Origin: Alphaproteobacteria bacterium | GTDB taxonomy: Bacteria; Pseudomonadota; Alphaproteobacteria; UBA828 | Length of the DNA: 64,000 nucleotides | Direction of reading: 5' to 3' | Assembly: GCA_965214705.1 (NCBI GenBank) | Contig: OZ243972.1 | Span: forward strand, 3,968,001-4,032,000 | In this document: one piece after another, positions 4,268 to 64,000 of the stretch | Layout of the letters: every line of letters begins with the position of its first letter | Position numbering within the stretch: the stretch's first letter is position 1 | Position numbers and translations under genes: made by a program | Notes under the pieces: model-generated | What the model was told of the DNA's origin: nothing | The model's database searches: none | The model's input: only the letters and a program-made list of their open reading frames with translations

Positions 4268-5509
4268 TCACGGTTTCCCCCTGTGGGTCGGCGGCAGCGC
4301 CGGCGGGCCGCGCGTCGAGCGGGGCTCATGGCGGCGGCGGATTTCGCGGACGAGGCGCATGACGCCGCCGCAGTGGGGGCAGGCCACGGGCGCGGTGCCG
4401 ATCTCGGGCTCTTCGTCGGGCTCGGCCCGAGCGCCGTCCACGCTTCCCTCGGGGGCGGCGCAGCCGAGGGCGCCGAGAGCCTGGCGTGCTCTCTCCAGCG
4501 TGCTGGCGCGGCAGCCGTTGGCGAGGATGCCGAAGTAGCGAATGCGGTGCATGCCGTCCGGCAGGACGTGCCTCAGGAAGCGGCGGATGAACTCGTCGGC
4601 GCTCACGGTGGCGATGCCGTAGCGCGGCTTTCTCTGCCCCGGCGCCTTGGGCTTTCGGTGGCGGAAGGAGACCGTCTCGCCGTCGAAGGAGACGATGCGG
4701 CTGTCGGAGATGGCGATCCTGTGCGTGTAGTGCGACAGGTACCGGAAGACCTGCTCAGGCCCGCGGAAGGGCCGCTTGGCGTAGACCACCCAGTCCCTGG
4801 CCCGGGCGGCGGCAAGCGTGGCGTGGAACTCGCCGGGATTGGCGAGGTGGGCGAGGGTGCCGTGGAACTCCAGGTCCCCCCGGCCGTGGGCGCGGGCGAG
4901 CTCCTCGAGGAAGAGGCGGCGGAACAGGCTGCCGAGGACCTTGACGGGGGCGAGGAAGGTGGTGCTCCCCGTCTTCCACTCGCCACTGTCTACGTCGAAG
5001 CCCGCGTTGGGCACGACCACGTGCAGGTGCGGGTGGAAGCGGAGCTTCTGATCCCAGGTATGGAGGACCGCGGTGCCGCCGATGCGCATGCCGCCGTGGC
5101 GGGGATCGGCGGCGATGGTGCGCAGGGTCTCGGCGACGGCCCGGAAGAGGATGTCGAACACCACCCTGCGGTTGCAGAAGGCAATGGCGGCAACCTCCTT
5201 GGGCAGGGTGAAGACCACATGGAAGTAGGGCACCGGCAGGATGTCCCCGGCGCGCTCCTCGCTCCAGAGGTTGGCGGCGAGACCCTGGCAGGTGGGGCAG
5301 TGGCGGTTGCGGCAGGAGTTGAAGAGCGGATGCTCGCGCCCGCAGCCCTCGCAGGCGTACATGTGGCCGCCGAGCACGGCGGTGCGGCACGCCTCGATGG
5401 CGCCCATGACCTTGAGCCGGGCGGCGTCGATGCGCCCTTTGTGGCGCTCACGGAAAGCGGCGCCGGCGCGGCGGAAGATCTCCGCCACGCCCGCGCGTTC
5501 GGCCTCCAC
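4268..5509 (-). CDS. IS91-family transposase
   Basis: Zn-finger NSCRNRHCPTC, YFHVVFTLP, HUH motif HPHLH, Y2 motif YLSHY. Confidence 0.95.
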   Translation of the reverse strand: MEAERAGVAEIFRRAGAAFRERHKGRIDAARLKVMGAIEACRTAVLGGHMYACEGCGREHPLFNSCRNRHCPTCQGLAANLWSEERAGDILPVPYFHVVFTLPKEVAAIAFCNRRVVFDILFRAVAETLRTIAADPRHGGMRIGGTAVLHTWDQKLRFHPHLHVVVPNAGFDVDSGEWKTGSTTFLAPVKVLGSLFRRLFLEELARAHGRGDLEFHGTLAHLANPGEFHATLAAARARDWVVYAKRPFRGPEQVFRYLSHYTHRIAISDSRIVSFDGETVSFRHRKPKAPGQRKPRYGIATVSADEFIRRFLRHVLPDGMHRIRYFGILANGCRASTLERARQALGALGCAAPEGSVDGARAEPDEEPEIGTAPVACPHCGGVMRLVREIRRRHEPRSTRGPPALPPTHRGKP

Positions 5510-5515
5510 GCGCCG

Positions 5516-6394
5516 TCAGTTGCGCAACGCTGCGAAGCCTGAGATCGGGTGGTCGAGGCCCTCGAACATCTTGCCGGTGACGCGGGCGTAGTGACGGGTC
5601 GTGTTCGCGCTTCGATGGCCGAGCATGTCCCGGATCACCTCGATATCGCCGCCGCGCTCGAGGAGATGGGTCGCCGCCGAATGGCGCAGGCAATGGAAGG
5701 TGTAGCTGCGGTCGAGCTCGGCAATGTCGCGCGCCCTCCTGAAGGCGGCCTGCAAGGTCTCCGTTGCGATGGGCCTGTCGAGCGAGACGCCGTAGAAGAG
5801 CCAGTTCGTCGGACGCGGCCAGATGTTCCTGTAGTAGACGCGCAAGTAGTGGATGACGATGTCCGGCAACGGTGCCATTCTCTCGGTGCCGCCTTTGCCG
5901 GAGGGGATGTGCAGCAGCTTCTTCTCCGACAGGATGTCGCCGACCTTGATGGCCAAGGTCTCGGAGATGCGGAGCCCGCCGCCATAGCCGGTGACAATGG
6001 CAGCACGGTGGCGGAGGTCGGGTGTCGCAAGGATGAGGTGCTCGACCTCCTGCTCCGACATGTAGCGCGGCAGCTTGCCGGGCTTCTTGCGGGAGCGCAG
6101 GCCGGCGACATGGTCAGGCCAGCCGAGTGTGTCGATGTAGAGGAAGTTCAGCGCGGCGAAGGAGACGTTGGTCGTGCCCGGACTGAGCCCCTTGTCGATC
6201 CGCCCCAGGTACCACTGGCGCACCTGCTCGGCGTCGAGCTCGTCCGGCGAGGCGTCGTAGTACCTGGCCAGGTTCTTGATCTCGCAGATGTAGGCCTTGG
6301 ACGTGCTCGCGGCCAGATTGGCGATGCGGAGCTGCTCCTCCATGCGCTGGCGAAGAGGGGTGACGGTGTTCGTGTCGCACGCGGTCCCGGTCAT
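5516..6394 (-). CDS. Tyrosine recombinase/integrase associated with the IS91-like element
   Basis: GLRISE, HCLRHSAATH, LGH...TRHY catalytic motifs; TPLRQRM N-terminus. Confidence 0.92.
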   Translation of the reverse strand: MTGTACDTNTVTPLRQRMEEQLRIANLAASTSKAYICEIKNLARYYDASPDELDAEQVRQWYLGRIDKGLSPGTTNVSFAALNFLYIDTLGWPDHVAGLRSRKKPGKLPRYMSEQEVEHLILATPDLRHRAAIVTGYGGGLRISETLAIKVGDILSEKKLLHIPSGKGGTERMAPLPDIVIHYLRVYYRNIWPRPTNWLFYGVSLDRPIATETLQAAFRRARDIAELDRSYTFHCLRHSAATHLLERGGDIEVIRDMLGHRSANTTRHYARVTGKMFEGLDHPISGFAALRN

Positions 6395-7207
6395 TATCGA
6401 TCTCCCTGGATCGCGACGGCGCGCCGCCGGACCGATCCGGCGACGGTCCGTCGCAGGGGTCGATGCTAACCACTGGTGATCGGGAGGCTGCTGGGGATCC
6501 GCCACCCGACGGGCGGAGCGCCACTGACGCAACCGGGAAGCGAACGCACAGAACAAACGGCACCCGCGACGCCTCGGAAATGAATGAACTCTACGCCGCT
6601 AACTCCGCGTAGCGGCTTCGTTCAATGTCATCTACACGGGAAGCCTCTCGAAATCCCTATTGCCCGGGCTGCGCATCGGCTACTTGGTTGCGGATCGAGA
6701 GTTCGTCAGAGAAGCGCGGGCGATGCGGCACCATATCCTGCGACACCCGCCGGTCAACAATCAGAGAAGCGTCGCGCTGTTCCTGCAACGAGGCTATTTC
6801 GACCGCTTCGTTGCCAAAATTACGGGCATCTACAAGGAGCGCTGCACCGTGATGCACGAAGCGTTGGAAAGGCACTTTCCGGGGGCGTCTACCAAGGCGG
6901 AATATGGAGGAGGCAGCATCTGGCTCAGGCTGCCGGATGGGGCGGATGCCGGCATTCTCCGCAAAATGGTAGACGCGGAAGGCGTGTTCTTTGAGACAGG
7001 TGGGTTCACGTTTTCCGACGAGAGAAACAACAGAAATCACATCCGTTTGGGGTATTCGGTGATCGAGAAATCGCTCATTGCGGAAGGCATCGACAAGATT
7101 GCCGAAGCGGTGCCCAACGCGCGGGATTCGAAATCCGGCACGAGTCAGTCAGCTGGACCGAGCCAGTTCGCTTTAACATCATCGCAATTGACCAGGAGGA
7201 AGTGATC

Positions 7208-46230: not shown

Positions 46231-49200
46231 CGCTCCCGTCACGCAAACGACAGGAGGCGCGGAATGCGACGTGTCATCGGCATCGACATCCACCGGACCT
46301 TCGGGGAGGTGGTGATCTAGGAGAACGGGGCTTTGCAGCACGCCGGCCGGGTGGATATGACCCGCACGGGATTGGAGGGCTTCGGCAAGGGCCTGCGGGC
46401 GACGGACGAGGTGGTGATCGAAGCGACGGGGAACTGCATGGCAGTCTCGCGTGTGCTGTCGCCCTTCGTGAAGCGGGTGGTGATCGCCAATCCGTTGCAG
46501 GTGAAGGCGATCGCGCACGCCCATGTGAAGACCGACAAGGTCGACGCGGGGACGCTGGCGAGCTTGTACGCGGCGGGGTATCTGCCCGAGATCTGGACGC
46601 CGGATGCGGCTACCGAGCGGCTGCGCCGGTTGGTGGCGCGGCGCTACCAGGTGGTGCGCCACAGGACGCGGCTCAAGAACGAGGTGCATTCGATCCTTCA
46701 TGCGCATCTGATCCCGAAGTGCCCGCACGCGGACCTGTTCAACCGGCGGGGGCGGTCGTGGCTGTCGCGCCAGCCCTTTCCCGACGACGAGCGTGCCGCG
46801 ATCGAGCGGCACATCCGTGAGCTTGATCGCCTGGGCGAGGACCTCGACCTCCTCGACCGCGAGATCGCGGAGAGTGCGCTGGACGATGCGGCGATCAAGC
46901 GGCTGATGACGATCACCGGTGTCAATCTCACCGTCGCGGTGGGACTGATGGCGGCGATCGGCGACATCGCCCGCTTCTCTTGCCCGCAGAAGCTGGTGAG
47001 CTACTTCGGCCTCAACCCGCGTGTGCGCCAGTCCGGTCTCGGCGCTGCCCACCACGGGCGGATCAGCAAGATCGGCCGCAGCCATGCCCGGACGATGCTG
47101 GTCGAGGCCGCCTGGGCGGCGGCAAAGGCCCCGGGGCCATTGCACGCCTTCTTCGTCCGCATCCGCGCCCGCCGCGGCCACCAGGTCGCCGCCGTCGCCG
47201 TCGTGCGCAAGCTGGCCGTCCTCTGCTGGCACATGCTGACCAAGGAGGAGGACTACCTCTGGGCCCGCCCGGCACTGGTGGCCAACAAGCTGCGCGCCAT
47301 GGAGCTGCAGGCCGGCAGGCCGCAGCAAAAGGGGAACCGGCGCGGACCGGCCTACGCTTACAACATCAAGGCGCTGCGCGACCAGGAGATCGATCTCGCC
47401 CGGCAAGCCGAGCGTAGCTACGAACGCTTCGTTGGCAACTGGCGTCCGCGCAAGCCACGGGACGGGGCGCGCGGACGCCTCAAGCCGGCAAGGCCTGAGT
47501 GAGGCAGCCCGGCGGCGCTTTCAGCCGCAGCGCCGCTCTTCGCCACGAGGTCGCCCGCGCAACCGACATCCTGCCACGGCCTCGAAGAAAGCGCTTGTCC
47601 ATCTCATCCGTCGAGTGCAGCTTGGTTCGGTGCTCCCTGGGGAAAGTCATGTAGGCCAGCACGTCGTGCTCGGCCTCGTCCATGAGGGTGGCGAGCTTGG
47701 GCGCCTTGGGCCTGAGCTGGTCGGCGACCAGGCGCCACTGGGCGCTTGCGGCCTCGGCGTCGTCCTGGGCGAAGGCGGTGGCGACGAAGGCAGACACGAC
47801 ACGCCGGCCCTGTCTGCCGGCATGGGCGAGCAGATTGCGCATGAAGTGGATGCGGCATCTCTGCCAGGTGGCGCCGAGGATGCGCCTGGCGGCGGCCTTG
47901 AGCCCCTTGTGGTCGTCGGAGATCACCAGCTTGACGCCGCCGAGCCCGCGCCGGGTGAGCGAGCGCAGGAACTCGGTCCAGAAGGTCTCGGCCTCGGACG
48001 CGCCGATCGCCATGCCAAGGACCTCGCGCCGGCCCTGGTCGTTGACCGCCACCGCGACGGTGACCGCGACCGGGACGATGCGCCCGGCCTCGCGCACCTT
48101 CACGTAGGTGGCATCCAGCCAGAGATAGGGCCAGTCTCCCTCCAGCGGGCGGTCGAGGAAGCTCCTGATCTTGTCGTCGATCTCGCCGCACAGCCTGGAC
48201 ACCTGGCTCTTGGAGATGCCGCTCATGCCCATCGCCTGCATCAGGTCGTCGACCGAGCGGGTCGACACGCCCTGGATGTAGGCCTCCTGGATCACCGCGG
48301 TCAGCGCCTTCTCGGCCATCCGACGCGGCTCAAGGAAGCCCGGGAAGTAGCTCCCCTTCCTCAGCTTCGGGATCTTCAGCGCCACCGTGCCCGCGCGGGT
48401 CTCCCAGGCCCGCTCGCGGTAGCCGTTGCGGTGGGTGATCCGCTCCGGCGAACGCTCGCCATGCGCAGCCCCGGTCAGCCCTTCCACCTCCAGCGCCATC
48501 AGACGCTCGGCCGCGAAGCCGATCATCTCGCGCAGCAGATCGGCGTCGGAACTCTTCTCCAAAAGCCCGCGCAGGGCCATCATGTCCTCGGTCATCGTGG
48601 TTCTCCTCGGTATCGGGTTGGCGTTGCACGACCCAACCCTAATCCGGAACCGCGATGGCCTCCGCTGTGGATAAGCAGCCCGCCGCCGCCAGACTCGCGG
48701 CGGTCGCGGCGGCGGGCTGCTTACCCACAGCTACCAACCGAAGCCAGAGCTCCTACACCACGCTTGGGGACACGACCATCGGAGACCGCACGGCGCAGCC
48801 GCTCGTTCTCCTTCTCGAGCTCCTTCAGACGACGAAGCTGATCGCCGCTCATCCCGGCGTACTCCTTGCGCCACCTGTAGAACGTGACTTCGCTGATCCC
48901 GAGCTGCCGGATCGCGTCCGCCATCGACGCTCCCTGACCGTGCAGAACCTCAGCCCGCCGCAGCAGGCTCACGATCTCCTCGGGCTTGTAACGCTTCCTT
49001 GCCATCGTCGGCCCTCCTCTTTCCATAACCTAAGGGTGGACCAATTCGATGGGAGAGGATCATCAGGGTGGGAGATGTCCGGTCGTCTGGCGCCCCGGCT
49101 TCCGCCATTCCATCGTCGTGCCTCGCAGCCACCTCAAGCGCGGGCGGGCCGTCGTGCCCGTCGCTTGCCTTCACTGACGGCTCAGGAGCGAGATACCCGC

Positions 49201-53899: not shown

Positions 53900-55381
53900 G
53901 CCTCTTCAAGTTCCTCCTCGGATGGCGACGCTCGGTCTACCGTGTGGGGTGGGTTCGCCAAATCGGCATCGCACCCTGACAGGTGAAGGAATACGTGGGG
54001 GCCGACGGCGGTACGGACAAGGTTAAGGGTTGGGCAGGCTCTCTCTCGAGAGCCTGCCCAACCCTTTTGAACGAAGCCGCGGGCCACGAGAGGCGAAGTT
54101 GAGCTATGTGGAAAGTGCGCTGATGTCAGCGTCAGGCGGCATCCACCGGCAGCAGAGTTGCGCATAAAATCGACGCTCGCGCCGGTCTTTCGGCAGGCAT
54201 GCGGGCGCACGCTGCGAGGACTGAGCGGGGTGTGAGCCGAGGGCTGTCAGCCCGGCTCAAGCGGAGACAGGTTCGGTCGTGCGTCGGCGCTTTGGCGCCG
54301 TTGCGCGGGGCCGAAGCGAGCGGGCGTCTCACGGTTTCCCCCTGTGGGTCGGCGGCAGCGCCGGCGGGCCGCGCGTCGAGCGGGGCTCATGGCGGCGGCG
54401 GATTTCGCGGACGAGGCGCATGACGCCGCCGCAGTGGGGGCAGGCCACGGGCGCGGTGCCGATCTCGGGCTCTTCGTCGGGCTCGGCCTGAGCGCCGTCC
54501 ACGCTTCCCTCGGGGGCGGCGCAGCCGAGGGCGCCGAGAGCCTGGCGTGCTCTCTCCAGCGTGCTGGCGCGGCAGCCGTTGGCGAGGATGCCGAAGTAGC
54601 GAATGCGGTGCATGCCGTCCGGCAGGACGTGCCTCAGGAAGCGGCGGATGAACTCGTCGGCGCTCACGGTGGCGATGCCGTAGCGCGGCTTTCTCTGCCC
54701 CGGCGCCTTGGGCTTTCGGTGGCGGAAGGAGACCGTCTCGCCGTCGAAGGAGACGATGCGGCTGTCGGAGATGGCGATCCTGTGCGTGTAGTGCGAGAGG
54801 TACCGGAAGACCTGCTCAGGCCCGCGGAAGGGCCGCTTGGCGTAGACCACCCAGTCCCTGGCCCGGGCGGCGGCAAGCGTGGCGTGGAACTCGCCGGGAT
54901 TGGCGAGGTGGGCGACGGTGCCGTGGAACTCCAGGTCCCCCCGGCCGTGGGCGCGGGCGAGCTCCTCGAGGAAGAGGCGGCGGAACAGGCTGCCGAGGAC
55001 CTTGACGGGGGCGAGGAAGGTGGTGCTCCCCGTCTTCCACTCGCCACTGTCTACGTCGAAGCCCGCGTTGGGCACGACCACGTGCAGGTGCGGGTGGAAG
55101 CGGAGCTTCTGATCCCAGGTATGGAGGACCGCGGTGCCGCCGATGCGCATGCCGCCGTGGCGGGGATCGGCGGCGATGGTGCGCAGGGTCTCGGCGACGG
55201 CCCGGAAGAGGATGTCGAACACCACCCTGCGGTTGCAGAAGGCAATGGCGGCAACCTCCTTGGGCAGGGTGAAGACCACATGGAAGTAGGGCACCGGCAG
55301 GATGTCCCCGGCGCGCTCCTCGCTCCAGAGGTTGGCGGCGAGACCCTGGCAGGTGGGGCAGTGGCGGTTGCGGCAGGAGTT

Positions 55382-57031
55382 CTTATGAGCTCTCTCCGCA
55401 AGGCCCGGCTTCATCTACGTCAATGGCATTCGCAATCTCTCCACTCGAATCCGCGGCCGATGTCCAGGCAGAACGTCGTTTCCACGCAGCGATCCGCCAC
55501 GCTGCTCAGCTCTTATCCGGTTCGGAACTCCGGCGCTTGCCGGCTCCGTGACCCCAATACCGCATCCAAGCGGTGGTGACGTTCCGGGAGGCGGGACCCA
55601 TCTGTAGAACGGTGCCAAGCGGCGACCCAACTCTTGCCCGGTCACACGCCTTGCCCGGCATCCTCCGCGGCCGCGTCCGACCACGTCGGAACCTCCTGTA
55701 TTTTCCCGTTCGTTCGGCCGGTGCCCTCAGGAGACGATGGCGCCCTCAGGCACCAGTCCTTGGGTGGCATAGCGCCACAGCGCGATCAGCAGCTTGCGCG
55801 CGACCCCCACGATCGCCCGCTTCCTCGCTCGCCGGTCCCTCCCGCCACCGGCATCCCTGGCGACGTAGGCGTGGAACCACTTCGTGATCGCGCTTTCCGG
55901 TTGCAGCTTCAGCCAGCGCCAAGCCATCTGGATCATGTGCTTCCTGACATGCGAGGGGCCGGCCTTGCTGATGCCAAGATCGTGGTCGACATCTCCGCTC
56001 GCCCACGGCACCGACGTCAACCCGGCCCAGCTGCCCAACTCCCGGCGATTGCGGAAGTCCCGATAGAACACCTCGCCAGCCAGCAGTGTGGCGTCATTGA
56101 GGCCGATGCCATGGATGCGCGTAAGCGCCGCGATCATCGCCGTCCCGTCACGATTGGTCGCGTCCTGGGCTTTCCGGCCAGCCTTCAGCAGGGCCCTCTT
56201 CTCGGCCTCGATCATCTCGATATGCTCCTCAACCAGGCGAAGCATCCCCACCGCCCTCTCAATCTCTGCCCGCGCACGCGGCGGCAACGGCGCCCCATAG
56301 CCCGTCCGCGCGGTCGCGAGGCGTTCGAGGAAGTCCGGCTTGCGCGGCGCCAGATCGAAGATGCCGTGCAACTGCAAGAGCCCTTTGATCCGGTTGTTGA
56401 CGCGGGTACGCTCGCTGATCAGCGTGTCCCTCTCGCGCAGCAGGCGCTTGGCATCCTCCTGGTCCACATCGGGCACGCGCACCCAGGACATGGCCTCCGA
56501 ATCGCCTTGGTCCCATGCCTTCAGAGCCCGAACCATCCTCCTCGCGTCGATACGGTCGGTCTTTTTCTTCTTGGCGCGCCGGTTCACCCGCAGGCTCGCC
56601 GGATCGTTCATGAAGATATCGATCTCCGCGTCACGGCGCTCGATATCGCGGGCAAGCCAGAACCCCTCGTAGCCCGCCTCGTAGGTCAGCATCACCCGAG
56701 GACGGGCGCCGAGCTCCCTCGCCACCCGTTCCCGCACCGACCCGACGAGATCCAACAGTCCCGCCGTGTCGGCAGCAGCCAGTGTGTGGATGCTGATGCT
56801 GCCACCCGAGGCATCCGGGCAATGCACGCCAACGATCCACGATTTGAGGCTGATCTCCACCGCGACATAAATCGTGCTACTACTTGCGCCTGTCAGCGCG
56901 GTCGTGTCTGGACCATCCGACATCCGTCCACTCCGTTGTTGACGATTCCGCTCGGAGAGAAGGTGCTGGCCTTCTCTCCGAGCTTGTCTAACCGCCAGAA
57001 TCGATTCGGTGCCACCGTGCTCATGGTATCT
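55382..57031 (-). mobile_element. IS110-family element #3 (IS1111-like layout, long downstream non-coding end); recombinase 56923-55727
   Basis: YVAVEIS, TYEAGYEGFWL, KTDRIDA, WASG, GVARKL; empty site visible in IS91 copy 1 at 5311-5330. Confidence 0.9.
55490..55660 (-). ncRNA. Putative seek/bridge RNA of IS110 #3 (approximate limits)
   Basis: Target-matching 55638-55628 and 55612-55603; donor-matching 55561-55556 and 55516-55510; each pair separated by a hairpin. Confidence 0.7.
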
Positions 57032-57041
57032 GAAGAGCGGA

Positions 57042-57437
57042 GTGCGCCAGGCGAACTGGTGCGAGTGCAGTTGGTGAAAGTCCAACAGGAAGGAGAAGGT
57101 GAGCCACCACTTCCACCCCGAGTCATGGGCCGTCGCTCGCGAGGGCGAGGGTCAAGCGTTGACAGGGGCGCGTGTGGGCGGGGCTATTGAGCACCGAAAG
57201 AAACATCATCCGGGATGCCGAGGCTCTTTCGTTGGCCGAAGGTCGCATCTGGCCCACCGATATGGCGAGGGGGGTCTGAATCCCGCGGTGTCAGAGAACC
57301 CACGCACGTACGTACGCACTGCACCGGGACCTGGGAGGTCTCCATGTCATCCCGCTGAGTCGTGGCGGGAACGCTGAGGAAAGGAGGAGTCCGTAACCGA
57401 AGATGAACGACATGGAGAAATCAGACTCGGCCATAGT
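57042..57437 (+). ncRNA. Group II intron A, 5' part (domains I-II and start of III)
   Basis: Starts GTGCG exactly where IS91 homology stops; GGTGAAAGTCC, GCGAG loop, GACCTGGGAGGTC, GAGAAATCAGACTCGGCCATAGT; candidate EBS1 TTCGTT (57228-57233) pairs with AGCGGA. Confidence 0.85.
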
Positions 57438-59606
57438 GTGTGCTGGGCAGCGCCCAGATCAGGTGGGTTCAAGTCCCACTGGCGCTCGGGTAAGGGGCGC
57501 CATATCCAAAAGTGGGGGTAATTCCTCACTGGCCGGAGTGAGCCGATAAGCGAAACTCTAAACGGGCACGAAGCCGGAAACGGCGGAGACAGCCAAGGGA
57601 GGAGCTAAGTTGGTCCACTGTCGAAAGACAACCGGAAGGCAGGGTGTCCACCGCGAGGTGGAATCTGAAGGGCTTGCGGAGAAGTACCGGGCCGTAATCG
57701 AGGGGGCCACCCCATGATGAATCGGTCGGCCAAAGACGGGGCAAGGTCGAGCCGGCACTATGGCGGCGAAGGCGTTCTTACCCACCCGTCGCACCAAGGT
57801 GTTTGCGAGCGGCACGGTACGGAAGATCTGGACGTGACCCCAGGAGGGTGTGATTCTCGTATGGCGATATGCCAGTCGTGATGGCGCTAAAGGATATGGG
57901 CTGGTTCATTTTGGTCAAGCAGCGAGTGCCAGGACTTCGGTTGGGCTGATGTTGTCGTTAGCTGGTCCGGATCGGGCGTCCATGAGCGCATCCCATGCCC
58001 GGTCGAAGAGGCCGGATTTGATCAGGGCGCGGAAGGTCAGAACCGCCTGCCCGCCGTCGATCCGCCAGCGCATGCCCGAGCGTTTCAAGCGCTGCGCGAC
58101 GAGGGTCTTGCAGGCCGCCTCGACCACACCCGAGCCGATGGCGATGCCCTCTTCCTTCAGGGCGTGGTAGCGCATCCGATGGCGGTGCTTTCGGAAGAAG
58201 GCCAGTTCGCGCTCGATCTCGGCCGGGTCCCCCTTTGCCCTGTCCAGGAGGTAGCGCAGTGCCCGGATCACCTTGTCGACGCCGCGGGGGTCGTGGCGCA
58301 GGATTTCGCGGTGCTTCTCGAACCAGTGGCGCGCCACCGCATGGTCAGAGGCCACGCGGAGATGCTCGCAAGCGTGCCAGAAGTCGATGACCTCGGTCTC
58401 GGGCGAGAGGCTTTCGAGGAAGGTCCAGTTGTCGGCGGCCCCGTCGGCGACGGCGCCGATCCTGATCTTCGGGCTCACACGGCGGATATGGGCGACCTCG
58501 CTTGCAAGTTGCGCTTTCAGCGCGGCCTTGCCGCTCTCGGGCATACGGCCGAGATAGAGGGTCTTCAGCCGTTGGCCCTCGGCGTCGTGGAAGGAGACCG
58601 TGCCGCAAGAGGCCTCGCGCCAGCACGCCTCGGCACGGCCGTCCTCGCCGGCCCGCAGCGCCACCATGACGCCGTCAAGGGAGACGGACGCGGTGACCGC
58701 ATCGGGCGGTATGCCCTGGGTTTCACGGATGCTGGCCAGCGTCTCCGGGGCGACGCTCTCCCAGTGCTCATGCATGCTCAGGGCCAGGCGCTGCAGCGTG
58801 CTCACCGACGGCGTCATTCCGCCCATTTTCGCGAAGAACTCCTCCGCTTCACGCGGCGTACAGTGGCCCATCATCATCAGCCCGAGCTGCGCCGCCGGCC
58901 GCGTCAGGTAGTCGTCGATGAGGCCCAGGCTCTCGTCCACCGGCACCAGCGACGTGCTGCTCGCGCCGCTGCGATAGCGCGCACGCCGATAGGTCACGGG
59001 ACCGAGCGTCGTCATGATCGTCTTCGGCGTCGCCGCCACCCGGACCCAGCTCTGTCCGTCGCGCTCGATCCGGCTCGCACCGTCGTCGCGGCTCTCGGCG
59101 AAGGCCCCAAGGAGCTTGCAACCCAAGCCGTTCATGGCGTCCCGCAGCCCCGTCTCAACCGTTTCGAACGTCTCGGCAGACGGGTCAGACCCAGCCTGTT
59201 CGCGACAGAACTCCACCACCTGGGCGACCGCTTCGGCGACTTCGGCAGGCAGGCCCAAAAGGTCGATGGACGAGGCGATGAGAGACTGCGACACTGGCAT
59301 GGGAACGCTCCTGATGTTGGGTCTGATGTTGGGTTGTCGGCGCGGCATCCTACCGCATCTCGCGGTGCGGAGCGTTCCCACCCACCACTGCTGGATGCCG
59401 CCGTTGTGACAAAATCCGGCCCTGCACCGGCCGATTGTCACGAAAACCCGATTCTGGCTGCCTACGGCCACCCGCCAATCGCGCTAAATCAATGACTTAC
59501 GATCGCCATGCCAGACCTCCAGACCTACACCCCCCCAGGAGGGCTCGCCGCGTTCCCGGGTGGCACCGGGATAACGGACCCTATAAGCCGAAAGGCGAAA
59601 TGGGAA
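57438..59606 (+). ncRNA. Group II intron B, 5' part, nested in intron A, split by an IS and cut off by IS1595
   Basis: Starts GTGTG; GGTTCAAGTCC; EBS1 ACTATGG (57757-57763) is the exact complement of the 7 nt before it; resumes at 59541 after the IS. Confidence 0.82.
57846..59532 (-). mobile_element. ISKra4/ISLre2-like (IS256-related) insertion sequence, transposase 59300-57915
   Basis: IRs GGGTGT(G/A)..TCT; 8-bp TSD CCCCAGGA; SLDGVM, VADGA, IDFWHACEH, IGSGVVEAACK. Confidence 0.9.
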
Positions 59607-61826: not shown

Positions 61827-63044
61827 TGTCCTGTCATTCATCAACTGTCGGATAGAGGCGTTTCAGCTTCACCCGTGCGTCGTCCGTGGTGAACTGCCAG
61901 TTGACGTTGCCCCGGATGCGGTCTCGGGACGCCTGCCAAGCCGCGACCTCGTCGCGCAGGACTTCGAGGGAGGCGATGCGGCGGTTGAGACACTGACGGA
62001 TCATGACGTTGAGCTCGACCTCGGCGACGTTGAGCCAACTGCCGTGCTTGGGCGTGTAGACGAACTCGAAGCGGTCCCACAGCGCCTTGGCCTGGTCCGG
62101 CGGAAATGCCTCGTAGAGGGCGCCGGGGCGGTGGGTGTTCAGGTTGTCCATCACAAGCGTGATCCTCTTGGCGCGGGGGTGGCGCTCGGCGATGTCGTTG
62201 AGGAAGTGCGCCCAGTCGGTTTTGGTTCTGCGCGCCGTCACCTTGGTCATACGCCGCCCGGCCAGGGGTTCGGTCGCCATGAACACGTTGCAGCTTCCGC
62301 AACGTCGGTACTCGTAGTCTTCGCGCGCCGGCCGACCCGGCGCTGCCGGAACCGGTTCGCGTGTCTCGCCGATCAGTTGCCGGGGCGTCTCGTCCATGCA
62401 CACCACCGGAAAGGCTGCATCGTAGGGACGCCGGTAGACGTCGAGAACCTTCTCCATCGCCGCGGCGAAGTCCGCGTTGCCCTGTGGGGGAATCACCCAG
62501 CCGACGCGCCGCCACGGCTTGATTGCGTTTTTTTTAGCACCCGGCGCACCGTCTCGTGCGACACGCTGTCGATGTGGCCGAGTTCCACGATGCGGTCCGC
62601 CAGCAACCGCAGCGACCACTGCGAGTGGCCCTCCGGCGGCTCGGCGCAGCTCAGCGCCACCAAGTGCGCCTCGAACTCGCCGTCGGCCTTGCGCACGTAG
62701 CTGGGACGGCGACCCTGCCGGCCACCGAGCGCCGCCGCCATGCCCGCCTCGACGAAACGCTTCTTGACCCGCTCCACCTTGCGCGCACTGATGCGCAGGA
62801 TCTCCGCAATGGCCTCCCCGTGCGCCCGGTGCTCGTTGAACTCGCCTTCGTCGCAGTTGAGCAGGATCAGCGCGTTGATCACCTTCTGTGACTGATGAGA
62901 GCCCTTGCGCGTGATCTCTGCGAGCTCGTCCCGCTCCTCCTTCTCCAAAGTCACCACGTAACGCTTCATGCCAGCCTCCTCGCCGTCGTGCGACGACGAG
63001 AAAGCTATCATGAAATGGGCGACATATCGTATGTGACATGACAC
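61826..63044 (-). mobile_element. IS630-family element with programmed frameshift (orfA 62969-62493, orfB to 61834)
   Basis: IRs TAGTGTC(C/A)TGTCA; TA duplication inside CTAG; A8 slippery run near 62528-62535; CMDETP, MDNLNTH, TPKHGSWLNVAE. Confidence 0.93.
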
Positions 63045-64000
63045 TAGGACCGCGCGCCTGAGTCCAGTCCGTTGTCGGCGATCAGGTCACGGTAGCACAG
63101 GCGCTTGCCGATCATCCCGGCGACCACCGCGCCCATCTGGTCGATGGTGTCGCTCTCGCGCACGTTGTGGCGGCCCGCGAACTCTTGGACGTACCGTTGC
63201 AGGTGCTTCGCGCTCAGCTTGTGGTAGACGCCCTTGTGCGCCCGCTTGAGCATGGACCAAAACGACTCCATGCCATTGACGTGGGCTTGGTTGCGGACAT
63301 ACTCGCCAGCACTGTGGTTCACGGCCTCGCGGTCGAACTCGCCTTCCAGCGGGTTGTAGGCTGCGCTTTCGTCCGTATAGACCTTCGCGCCCGGCTCGGT
63401 CTTCTCTGCGACGAAGCCCGCGACATGCGGGGCATCCGTGTTCTGAATGTGCCGCACCGCGACGCGGTTGGTGGCGCGGTCCTTGGTGCCGACCACGGCC
63501 TCTTTGCCGACTGCACCGCGCCCGCTCAGCGTCTTCCGCTTGGCCTTCGACATGTTCGCGCGCCGCCCACCCACGTATGTCTCATCGGCCTCGACCGGCC
63601 CCGAGAATAGCGATTCGCTCTCGGCGGACCAAGCCTCCCTGATCCGATGCAGCATGAACCAAGCGGTCTTCTGCGTCACCCGCAGGTCGCGATGCAGCTT
63701 CATCGACGACACGCCCTTGAGGCTGGTCATCTCCAGGTAGATGGCGAAAACCCACTTGCGCAGCGGAACCTTGGAGCGCTCCAAGGCCGTGCCGATCCGC
63801 ACCGAGAAGGCCCGCTTGCAGGCCGGGCAGTAGTAGGGCAGGCCGGACGTGGCGGACGCTTCCGCAGTCTCGGTGCATCCGCAGCGCGGGCAATGGCGAC
63901 CATCCGGCCAGACCAGAGACTCGAACCACGTGGCGGCGGAAGCCTCGTCCGGGAACATCTCGGTCAACTCGATCAGGCTGATTCCCTCGCGGTGCGCTTT
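63044..64000 (-). CDS. IS1595-family transposase (start beyond the window edge)
   Basis: CPRC...CPAC Zn ribbon, KGVSSMKLHRDL, VEADETYVG, YTDE, HVNGMESFW. Confidence 0.93.
   Translation of the reverse strand, partial: KAHREGISLIELTEMFPDEASAATWFESLVWPDGRHCPRCGCTETAEASATSGLPYYCPACKRAFSVRIGTALERSKVPLRKWVFAIYLEMTSLKGVSSMKLHRDLRVTQKTAWFMLHRIREAWSAESESLFSGPVEADETYVGGRRANMSKAKRKTLSGRGAVGKEAVVGTKDRATNRVAVRHIQNTDAPHVAGFVAEKTEPGAKVYTDESAAYNPLEGEFDREAVNHSAGEYVRNQAHVNGMESFWSMLKRAHKGVYHKLSAKHLQRYVQEFAGRHNVRESDTIDQMGAVVAGMIGKRLCYRDLIADNGLDSGARS

Follow-up and report, generated by a model that had tools for sequence, protein, structure and literature searches.

The locus considered here raises the question of how one mobile element comes to lie at a particular site within another. 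In the window, a stretch of 64,000 nucleotides from an alphaproteobacterial genome (C1:3968001-4032000, where C1 and C3 are contig labels for genome coordinates), an insertion sequence (IS) of the IS110 family occupies positions 55382-57031 of the minus strand. The gene that it interrupts is a minus-strand IS91-family transposase gene (Y2_Tnp and Zn_Tnp_IS91 domains), and the insertion site falls in the region that encodes the zinc-binding domain. The ends of the element, its site specificity, the conserved structure of its non-coding end, and the co-variation of candidate guide segments with flanks and element ends were all computed here. As judged from these sequence comparisons, the element is an active or recently active IS110-family IS with an IS1111-type architecture and RNA-guided insertion, a reading to which a probability of about 0.9 is attached. 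The RNA-guided mechanism of IS110 and IS1111 elements is already known, and the element represents a clear natural example that is aimed at IS91, i.e. a transposon targeting a transposon, with an RNA-guided element directed at the coding sequence of another.

The limits of the element were established by comparison of its two junctions with an uninterrupted copy of the site. The left junction reads GGCAGGAGTT/CTTATGAG at 55372-55389 (GGCAGGAGTT/CTTATGAGC if extended to 55390) and the right junction CATGGTATCT/GAAGAGCGGA at 57022-57041, both on the plus strand, and the empty site GGCAGGAGTTGAAGAGCGGA is present at 5311-5330, also on the plus strand. Because of this comparison the element is placed at 55382-57031; the range given in the first-pass annotation, 55371-57041, contained the element itself together with 10 bp of flank on each side. 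The sequence that the annotation had named as the empty target is indeed present, in an intact IS91-family gene with Y2_Tnp and Zn_Tnp_IS91 domains. Without the core base the element measures 1649 bp, to which a single copy of that base is added (A when read on the element strand; position 57031 or 55381), and comparison of empty and occupied sites revealed insertion that is site-specific and oriented, with no duplication beyond the short core. The features of the element and its site are as follows.

55382-57031, minus strand: whole IS110-family element, 1650 bp including one shared core base, defined by its junctions against the empty site.
56924-57030, minus strand: left end, 107 nt, beginning GATACC (57030-57025) and then ATGAGC (57024-57019).
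55727-56923, minus strand: recombinase gene P0001, 398 amino acids plus stop, ATG at 56923, with the tetrad E23-E82-D123-D126.
55382-55726, minus strand: right end of 345 nt, which contains the predicted bridge/seek RNA and closes with GCTCAT (55390-55385) and AAG (55384-55382).
55372-55381, plus strand: IS91 flank GGCAGGAGTT, the left half of the target, its final T being the shared core base.
57032-57041, plus strand: IS91 flank GAAGAGCGGA, the right half of the target, followed by a group II intron from 57042.
5311-5330, plus strand: unoccupied target, within the Zn_Tnp_IS91 domain of an intact IS91 tnpA (open reading frame (ORF) 4268-5509, minus strand).

The subterminal inverted repeat, ATGAGC/GCTCAT, is a perfect 6 bp situated 6 and 3 nt from the element ends, and extends to ~10 bp with one mismatch in some relatives. 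A GAT-N..ATGAG motif occurs once upstream of the recombinase gene in 23 of the 30 relatives examined.

BLAST analysis of the genome revealed ~21 copies of the element with the same ends, including 14 that are intact and at least 99.9% identical, 3 split by other insertions, further fragments, and 4 diverged copies (96.7, 96.1, 92.1 and 86.2% identity). Exact-string counts across the genome yielded 18 left and 19 right junctions at one site in IS91 tnpA, all of the IS91-borne copies having one orientation, which bears out the initial proposal that the element is aimed at IS91 transposases. The exact 20-mer is empty at 68 positions, that at 5311-5330 among them, so that roughly one IS91 site in five is occupied; the intact copy in the window, previously predicted to be a future target, is reasonably regarded as a potential one, the 68 identical sites being still empty. 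One 100% identical copy of the element resides in a relative of IS91 that is ~85% identical and retains the 20-mer, and insertions were also found in a 97.9% IS91 variant and in an istB gene.

It is conceivable that most of the 18-19 IS91-borne copies descend from one or a few insertions, and that these were then spread passively with IS91 elements mobilised in trans. The IS91 ends are intact in the occupied copies, the 68 intact copies could supply transposase, and most copies of the element are 100% identical. Against this, the 16 occupied IS91 arms (>95% class) fall in 15 of 55 haplotypes, 5 of which are both occupied and empty, and from this spread of the occupied arms it follows that several independent insertion events at the IS91 site are likely. 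With the insertions in the 97.9% variant, the 85% relative and istB also taken into account, predominantly passive spread is regarded as rather unlikely, and it would in any case bear on the frequency of targeting and not on the mechanism.

The basis of the site specificity was sought in the non-coding right end, which had been described as encoding a seek or bridge RNA with two segments directed at the target and two at the joined element ends. A total of 80 related loci were collected, with transposases 49-62% identical to P0001; 63 of these have a homologue of the non-coding end that is detectable by blastn, representing 36 distinct sequences. Guides were extracted by alignment column from a scaffold alignment of 29 sequences. 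The four predicted guide segments are given below.

55628-55638, minus strand: target guide 1 (GGCAAGAGUUG), predicted to pair with AACTCCTGCC, the flank immediately 3' of the insertion on the element strand.
55603-55609, minus strand: target guide 2 (UUCUACA), reading in the sense of CTCTTCA, the 5' flank on the element strand.
55556-55561, minus strand: donor guide 1 (GGUAUU), its variable base predicted to pair with the fourth left-end base, GAT-A.
55510-55516, minus strand: donor guide 2 (AUAAGAG), in the same sense as ATAAG-A-G (right end, core and first left-end base).

The sequence GGCAAGAGTTG at 55638-55628 (minus strand) fits the plus-strand target GGCAGGAGTTG at 10 of 11 positions, exactly as first reported. 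The second target segment had been credited with an 8/10 match over CCGUUCUACA. The corresponding DNA, CCGTTCTACA at 55612-55603, is (CCG)TTCTACA, and since the CCG (55612-55610) is invariant in all 29 aligned sequences it is scaffold and not guide; the UUCUACA portion stands, matching CTCTTCA at 5 of 7 positions plus one wobble. The IS91 site has 3 mismatches to the two target guides taken together, and a search for sites in the genome that fit both guides better returned none with 0-1 mismatch and 2 with 2 mismatches. An 11-mer with at most one mismatch is expected 1.51 times by chance per 64-kb window (both strands), or about 0.004 times when scaled to one strand of the 345-nt end. The lone 10/11 match is only suggestive, and it is the comparative data that carry weight. 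Among 24 distinct sets with a called right end, guide 1 and its own 3' flank agree, on average, at 6.9 of 10 positions, compared with 3.65 ± 0.30 for permuted pairings, and guide 2 matches its own 5' flank at 5.05 of 7 positions in 20 sets with a called left end, compared with 2.89 ± 0.27; in neither case was any of 10,000 permutations as good as the observed pairing. The end calls behind these permutation tests made use of the donor guides to place the ends. With calls that are independent of the donor guides, the best reverse-complement match to guide 1 lies directly after a CATAAG-like end in 17 of 30 rows.

Co-variation of the donor guides with the element ends was assessed in 30 rows (the window and 29 relatives), with the ends called without recourse to the donor guides. 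The donor guide 2 variants ATAAGAG, ATAGGAG, ATACAAG and ATAAAAG fit right ends CATAAG, CATAGG, CATACA and CATAAA, respectively, with agreement in 17 of the 17 relatives whose right end was located via guide 1, in keeping with the match of AUAAGAG to the circle junction CATAAG-A-GATACC that had been noted from the sequence at the outset. Left ends for the test of donor guide 1 were found by GAT-NNN-ATGAG alone, and the variable base of the guide is complementary to the fourth left-end base in 19 of 23 cases, with all four pair types represented. The GG of GGUAUU, originally assigned to the donor segment, is invariant scaffold; it adjoins a small hairpin in which columns 150/159 co-vary (GC 10, AU 9 and CG 6 of 29). 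The 3' non-coding end is predicted to have the anatomy of a seek/bridge RNA, and all four guide segments are supported by the comparative data.

Guide segments and insertion sites can also be compared between copies within the genome. The 86.2% copy (C3:483683-485343) occupies a non-IS91 site, and in it AAUAGGCGUU and UUCCAUA replace the guides GGCAAGAGUU and UUCUACA; its flank, ACGCCTAT, has an 8-nt match to the new guide 1, offset by one base, and there is a corresponding change at one guide-2 position. The 96.7% copy (C3:428446-430105) has unchanged guides and interrupts an IS21-type istB gene at its Walker A codons (GPCGTGKS); the fusion protein is P0003. Its flank GGCAAGAGTT fits guide 1 at 10 of 10 positions and the guide-2 side fits poorly, so that the insertion resembles, by analogy, the half-match off-target insertions described for IS621 (10.64898/2026.08.31.748434). 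A search of the genome with an nhmmer profile of the scaffold returned 35 matches, comprising 31 with 8 distinct guide sets and 4 with unreadable target guides. In a three-copy family with the guide GAGAACUGGC, the flanks match at 8, 8 and 10 of 10 positions, directly after CATAAGA, and guide 2 of another copy, GCGGACA, is identical to its own 5' flank (7/7). The paralogous families with their own matching flanks have transposases that are about 51-53% identical. This one genome offers a complete natural test case: the target is found empty and, ~19 times, occupied, one copy has swapped guides and a new flank to match, and another site fits one guide only.

The segments that vary between copies are set in a near-invariant scaffold, which reads GUGUGACCG ... 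GGGU-hairpin-CACCG ... AGAUGGGUCCCG ... GGGUCACGG-hairpin-CCGAACCGGAUAAGAG and gives way to hypervariable stretches where the two target guides are predicted. The hairpin GCC-GCUU-GGC, placed between the target guides in the first-pass annotation, was found at 55623-55614 (minus strand). The predicted elements of the structure, all on the minus strand, are listed below.

55470-55682: conserved RNA scaffold, ~215 nt, from RNAalifold and pair counts on 29 sequences.
55682-55669: 5' hairpin of the scaffold.
55651-55640 with 55598-55587: outer stem of the target loop, co-varying.
55627-55611: inner hairpin of the target loop, GGU-C-GCC-GCUU-GGC-ACC, with GCC-GCTT-GGC at 55623-55614.
55585-55578 with 55477-55470: long-range stem round the donor loop, part of the scaffold.
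55553-55519: inner stem of the donor loop, part of the scaffold.

RNAalifold analysis of the 29 sequences predicted 36 pairs, with compensatory change in 21. For the named structure of 39 pairs, 91.7% of cells are paired, compared with 85.9% in shuffled alignments and 34-52% in slid controls, and 22 of the 39 pairs are altered on both sides, compared with 9.8 after shuffling; none of 500 shuffles was as good. A small hairpin added by hand to this count was set off-register (15.9% paired), the true pairing columns being 150/159. G-U pairs are frequent on the transposase-sense strand, for example in 11 of 29 sequences at columns 62/129, where the opposite strand would have C-A mismatches; the structure is therefore assigned to the transposase-sense strand. 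The scaffold of ~215 nt has no Rfam model and accompanies a very large recombinase family, which could make it a source of further orthologues for genome engineering.

Elsewhere in the genome (C1:1874702-1874876), 165 nt of the right end are duplicated directly before a full copy, with the join located inside the donor-loop hairpin.

Several observations weigh against RNA-guided insertion. Neither target guide fits the IS91 site perfectly (guide 1 has an A-C mismatch, and guide 2 a mismatch and a wobble), the donor and target cores are mismatched (CT and TT, respectively), and donor guide 1 misses in 4 of the 23 relatives (L022, L023, L030 and L051). In 13 of the 30 rows the best guide-1 match is away from a recognisable right end, and flank matches are poor in L006, L022, L033 and L074, which were kept in the means and probably reflect wrong end calls or alignment register. 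Folding of the single sequence, which is GC-rich DNA, was uninformative (z-scores of -1.0 and -1.5). No Rfam family matches 55440-55650 at E values up to 10, the nearest being Bcj14 (55654-55813; 27 bits against 59, and so below threshold), the match to which lies mostly within the end of the transposase gene, upstream of the guide loops. Consensus sequences for a sigma-70-like promoter or an intrinsic terminator were not found in 55300-57100; the RNA of IS1111-type elements is thought to come from the transposase transcript, with a promoter formed at the circle junction (PMC11187229). In four RNA-seq runs from one study, contigs of a ~92-93% relative span 55377-56110 or 55464-56293, including the non-coding end. 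Such RNA-library contigs, which show no ends, strand or level, constitute weak evidence, with DNA carry-over being possible. Finally, some of the 19 copies may have spread as IS91 passengers and so may not be independent.

Since co-variation proves pairing and not which nucleic acid pairs, the structure could feasibly function within the excised circle, in the form of single-stranded DNA, or as a stability or regulatory element at the 3' end of the messenger RNA, rather than as a trans-acting guide RNA. Single-stranded circles have been described in preprints on IS110 elements (10.64898/2026.08.31.748434; 10.1101/2025.10.25.684509), and the lack of a separate promoter or terminator consensus in 55300-57100 is likewise in line with such a role. 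A role in stability, however, would not call for the observed segments, which can pair with each strand of the target and each strand of the joined ends, and an RNase-sensitive, DNase-resistant RNA (~80 and 150 nt) that came from the corresponding region and co-purified with an IS1111-type transposase was essential (PMC11187229), hence this account is considered very unlikely. Least probable of all is recognition of the IS91 site by the recombinase protein alone, the likeness of RNA and target being due to chance or to a captured remnant of target DNA, as although a lone 10/11 match is only moderately unlikely and the guides are imperfect, the loop positions vary among the 29 relatives yet fit their own flanks to a degree that permutation did not reproduce, guide and flank changed together in the 86% copy, and the scaffold conserved round the variable segments shows compensatory changes.

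With RNA guidance as the preferred reading, the core merits separate consideration. A single nucleotide is shared at the junctions (T on the plus strand, A on the element strand), which confirms the earlier observation for this element, and this equates to the mismatch between a donor CT and a target TT core. Two nucleotides are shared in most of the relatives for which the right end was located, in that their flank starts with AG, or CT on the opposite strand, as in IS621. Here and in L017 the target has AA (TT), and guide 1 has U at that position. The first core base remains with its left-hand partner without exception: all 18 target-left/element junctions have T, and all 19 element/target-right junctions have C. 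Such uniformity would not be expected from random segregation of a 2-nt heteroduplex, and would accord with either a 1-nt overlap or the inheritance of a single strand's product. The core of IS621 has a T that is nearly invariant at its second position and a tolerant first base (PMC11208158), which fits the core mismatch observed here.

To the right of the element IS91 continues for just 10 bp, up to a group II intron that opens with GTGCG at 57042; Rfam model RF02005 matches 57077-57300 with 172 bits. Two propositions are entertained jointly, and as a pair are thought doubtful. The first is that only the invariant T of the core need be shared, the product of the CT strand always being inherited, which, if true, would lend natural support to single-strand transfer followed by copying. 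The second is that the element and the intron would be RNA-guided hyperparasites that have converged within 10 bp, with the zinc-finger codons of IS91 tnpA being struck and about a fifth of the IS91 copies knocked out.

By analogy with the work on IS621, ISEc11, ISPa11 and ISKpn4, on which RNA production, protein binding, circle formation and the chemistry of exchange are all modelled here, insertion would proceed as follows. The recombinase, with a RuvC-like domain bearing an E-E-D-D tetrad and a serine-containing C-terminal domain, would be translated from a transcript, and the 3' untranslated portion of that transcript would fold into a bridge/seek RNA (about 215 nt; 55682-55470). The target loop of this RNA would offer GGCAAGAGUU and UUCUACA, pairing with opposite strands of the IS91 tnpA site GGCAGGAGT-T-GAAGAG, and the donor loop, inside the long-range stem, would offer (GG)UAUU and AUAAGAG, pairing with opposite strands of the joined ends CATAAG-A-GATACC. 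Exchange between the excised circle and the target would then be carried out by the complex of recombinase and RNA at the invariant T, which is A on the element strand, giving oriented insertion without duplication.

The recombinase itself was identified as an IS110-family protein by several profiles. The NF033542 model ('IS110 family RNA-guided transposase') matches P0001 with 174 bits (cut-off 140), PF02371 with 45.5 bits, and PF01548 with 31.9 bits (cut-off 29), the last match being confined to the C-terminal part of the profile. In an alignment of 22 homologues, every sequence has E23, E82, D123, D126, S309 and G310, as well as G301 and P306 of the C-terminal GLTSVPWASG, which fits the G..P....SG motif; the Ser-Gly of that motif in the C-terminal domain typifies IS110-family transposases (PMC11187229). 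The remark that the first residue of the DEDD tetrad is Glu proved correct, in that E23 (YVAVEIS) is invariant and aligns with the first Asp (GLDVS, GIDLA) of canonical IS110 paralogues in the same genome; as far as the alignment indicates, Glu in place of the first Asp is a property of the whole subfamily and not of this element alone. In an AlphaFold (AF2) model with a predicted local distance difference test (pLDDT) score of 79.9, E23 ends strand 1 and E82 ends strand 4, and in the model both residues occupy the usual RNase H-fold positions. The Glu variant, the imperfect guides and the core mismatch all bear on how strict the enzymes of the IS110 family are.

The best full-length structural match to the P0001 model in Foldseek was the ISCro4 bridge recombinase from a synaptic complex (9t56_A, E value 1.6e-8), followed by the RNA-guided proteins TIGR-TasR and TasH (9mty, 9w04; E values 1e-6 to 5e-4). 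Search of the PDB with the single sequence of P0001 returned no match, and a profile search of the PDB matched the C-terminal domain only. A word-indexed search yielded 5880 relatives among 8000 scored candidates, mostly of 384-412 amino acids and mostly from marine or sponge-associated metagenome genomes, such that the description of the system as divergent is to be taken as a relative term, P0001 sitting in a very large family. The best match in a plasmid collection is 45-46% identical and labelled just 'IS110 family transposase', with no ISfinder name. A second, canonical IS110-family transposase gene is present in the window at 46333-47502 (plus strand), with PF01548 and PF02371 matches and 27% identity to P0001.

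Comparison with characterised systems places the element closest in architecture to the IS1111 types ISEc11, ISPa11 and ISKpn4, with which it shares a long non-coding region downstream of the transposase gene and subterminal inverted repeats (PMC11187229), an RNA situated in a long right end (345 nt) and a short left end (107 nt) (PMC11187229; PMC11208160), and site-specific insertion into repeated sequences (PMC11187229). The order of the guides is also shared, the segment complementary to the top strand lying 5' of that for the bottom strand (PMC11187229): here, guide 1 (55638-55628) pairs with the top strand of the element and guide 2 (55609-55603) with the bottom strand. The label of IS1111-like is justified in part, by the long right end, the short left end and the guide order, but does not extend to the transposase, which has 398 amino acids as opposed to 330-350 (PMC11187229); the perfect subterminal repeat is only 6 bp, compared with 7-17 bp in the IS1111 group; further differences are the Glu in place of the first catalytic Asp and a target that is a coding site in the IS91 transposase gene. 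In common with IS621, as described in PMC11208160 and PMC11208158, there would be two internal loops with two guides each, directed at opposite strands of target and donor, a core dinucleotide with an invariant T and tolerant first base (the donor core being CT on the plus strand), and RuvC-like and Tnp domains with a catalytic Ser. Unlike in IS621, the RNA is in the right end and not the left, the guides come in the opposite order, CT lies on the strand antisense to the transposase gene, similarity is detectable only in the C-terminal domain (profile E value 2.3e-4), and the donor and target cores differ (CT versus TT). ISCro4 (PDB 9t56), in addition to being the best full-length structural match (template modelling (TM) score of 0.58 by query length and 0.70 by target length), is the best PDB profile match (1.9e-6). 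Identity to ISCro4 is nonetheless only 19%, and P0001 is about 80 residues longer than the modelled chain (398 compared with 318).

Members of the IS110 family that are aimed at another mobile element reportedly have precedent, and are said to strike non-coding terminal repeats. In contrast to those precedents, the sequences struck here are codons for the zinc-binding domain of the IS91 transposase and, once, Walker A codons of IS21 istB. A single literature search turned up no published case of an IS110-type element directed at IS91, with the qualification that the supplementary tables of PMC11187229 and PMC11208160 may list the subfamily.

The surroundings of the element are rich in other insertions, and the genome as a whole is extremely IS-rich, with >80 IS91 copies. 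The group II intron (57042 onward, plus strand) is antisense to IS91 tnpA and lies 10 bp from the IS110 site; its junction with the flank, GAAGAGCGGA/GTGCG, occurs 3 times in the genome. The remainder of the interrupted IS91 copy resumes ~12.2 kb further on, at C1:4037210, outside the window, and the intron must therefore carry nested insertions. Transposase-like ORFs crowd the region after the intron start, at 57915-59471, 61834-63039 and 63044-63967 (all minus strand), the types represented being UPF0236-type, DDE_3 and IS1595-type. Directly upstream of the intact IS91 transposase gene, at 5516-6556 (minus strand), is an ORF for a tyrosine recombinase (Phage_integrase and SAM-like N-terminal domain), which is part of the repeated IS91 unit, the unit being longer than the 1.8-kb query.

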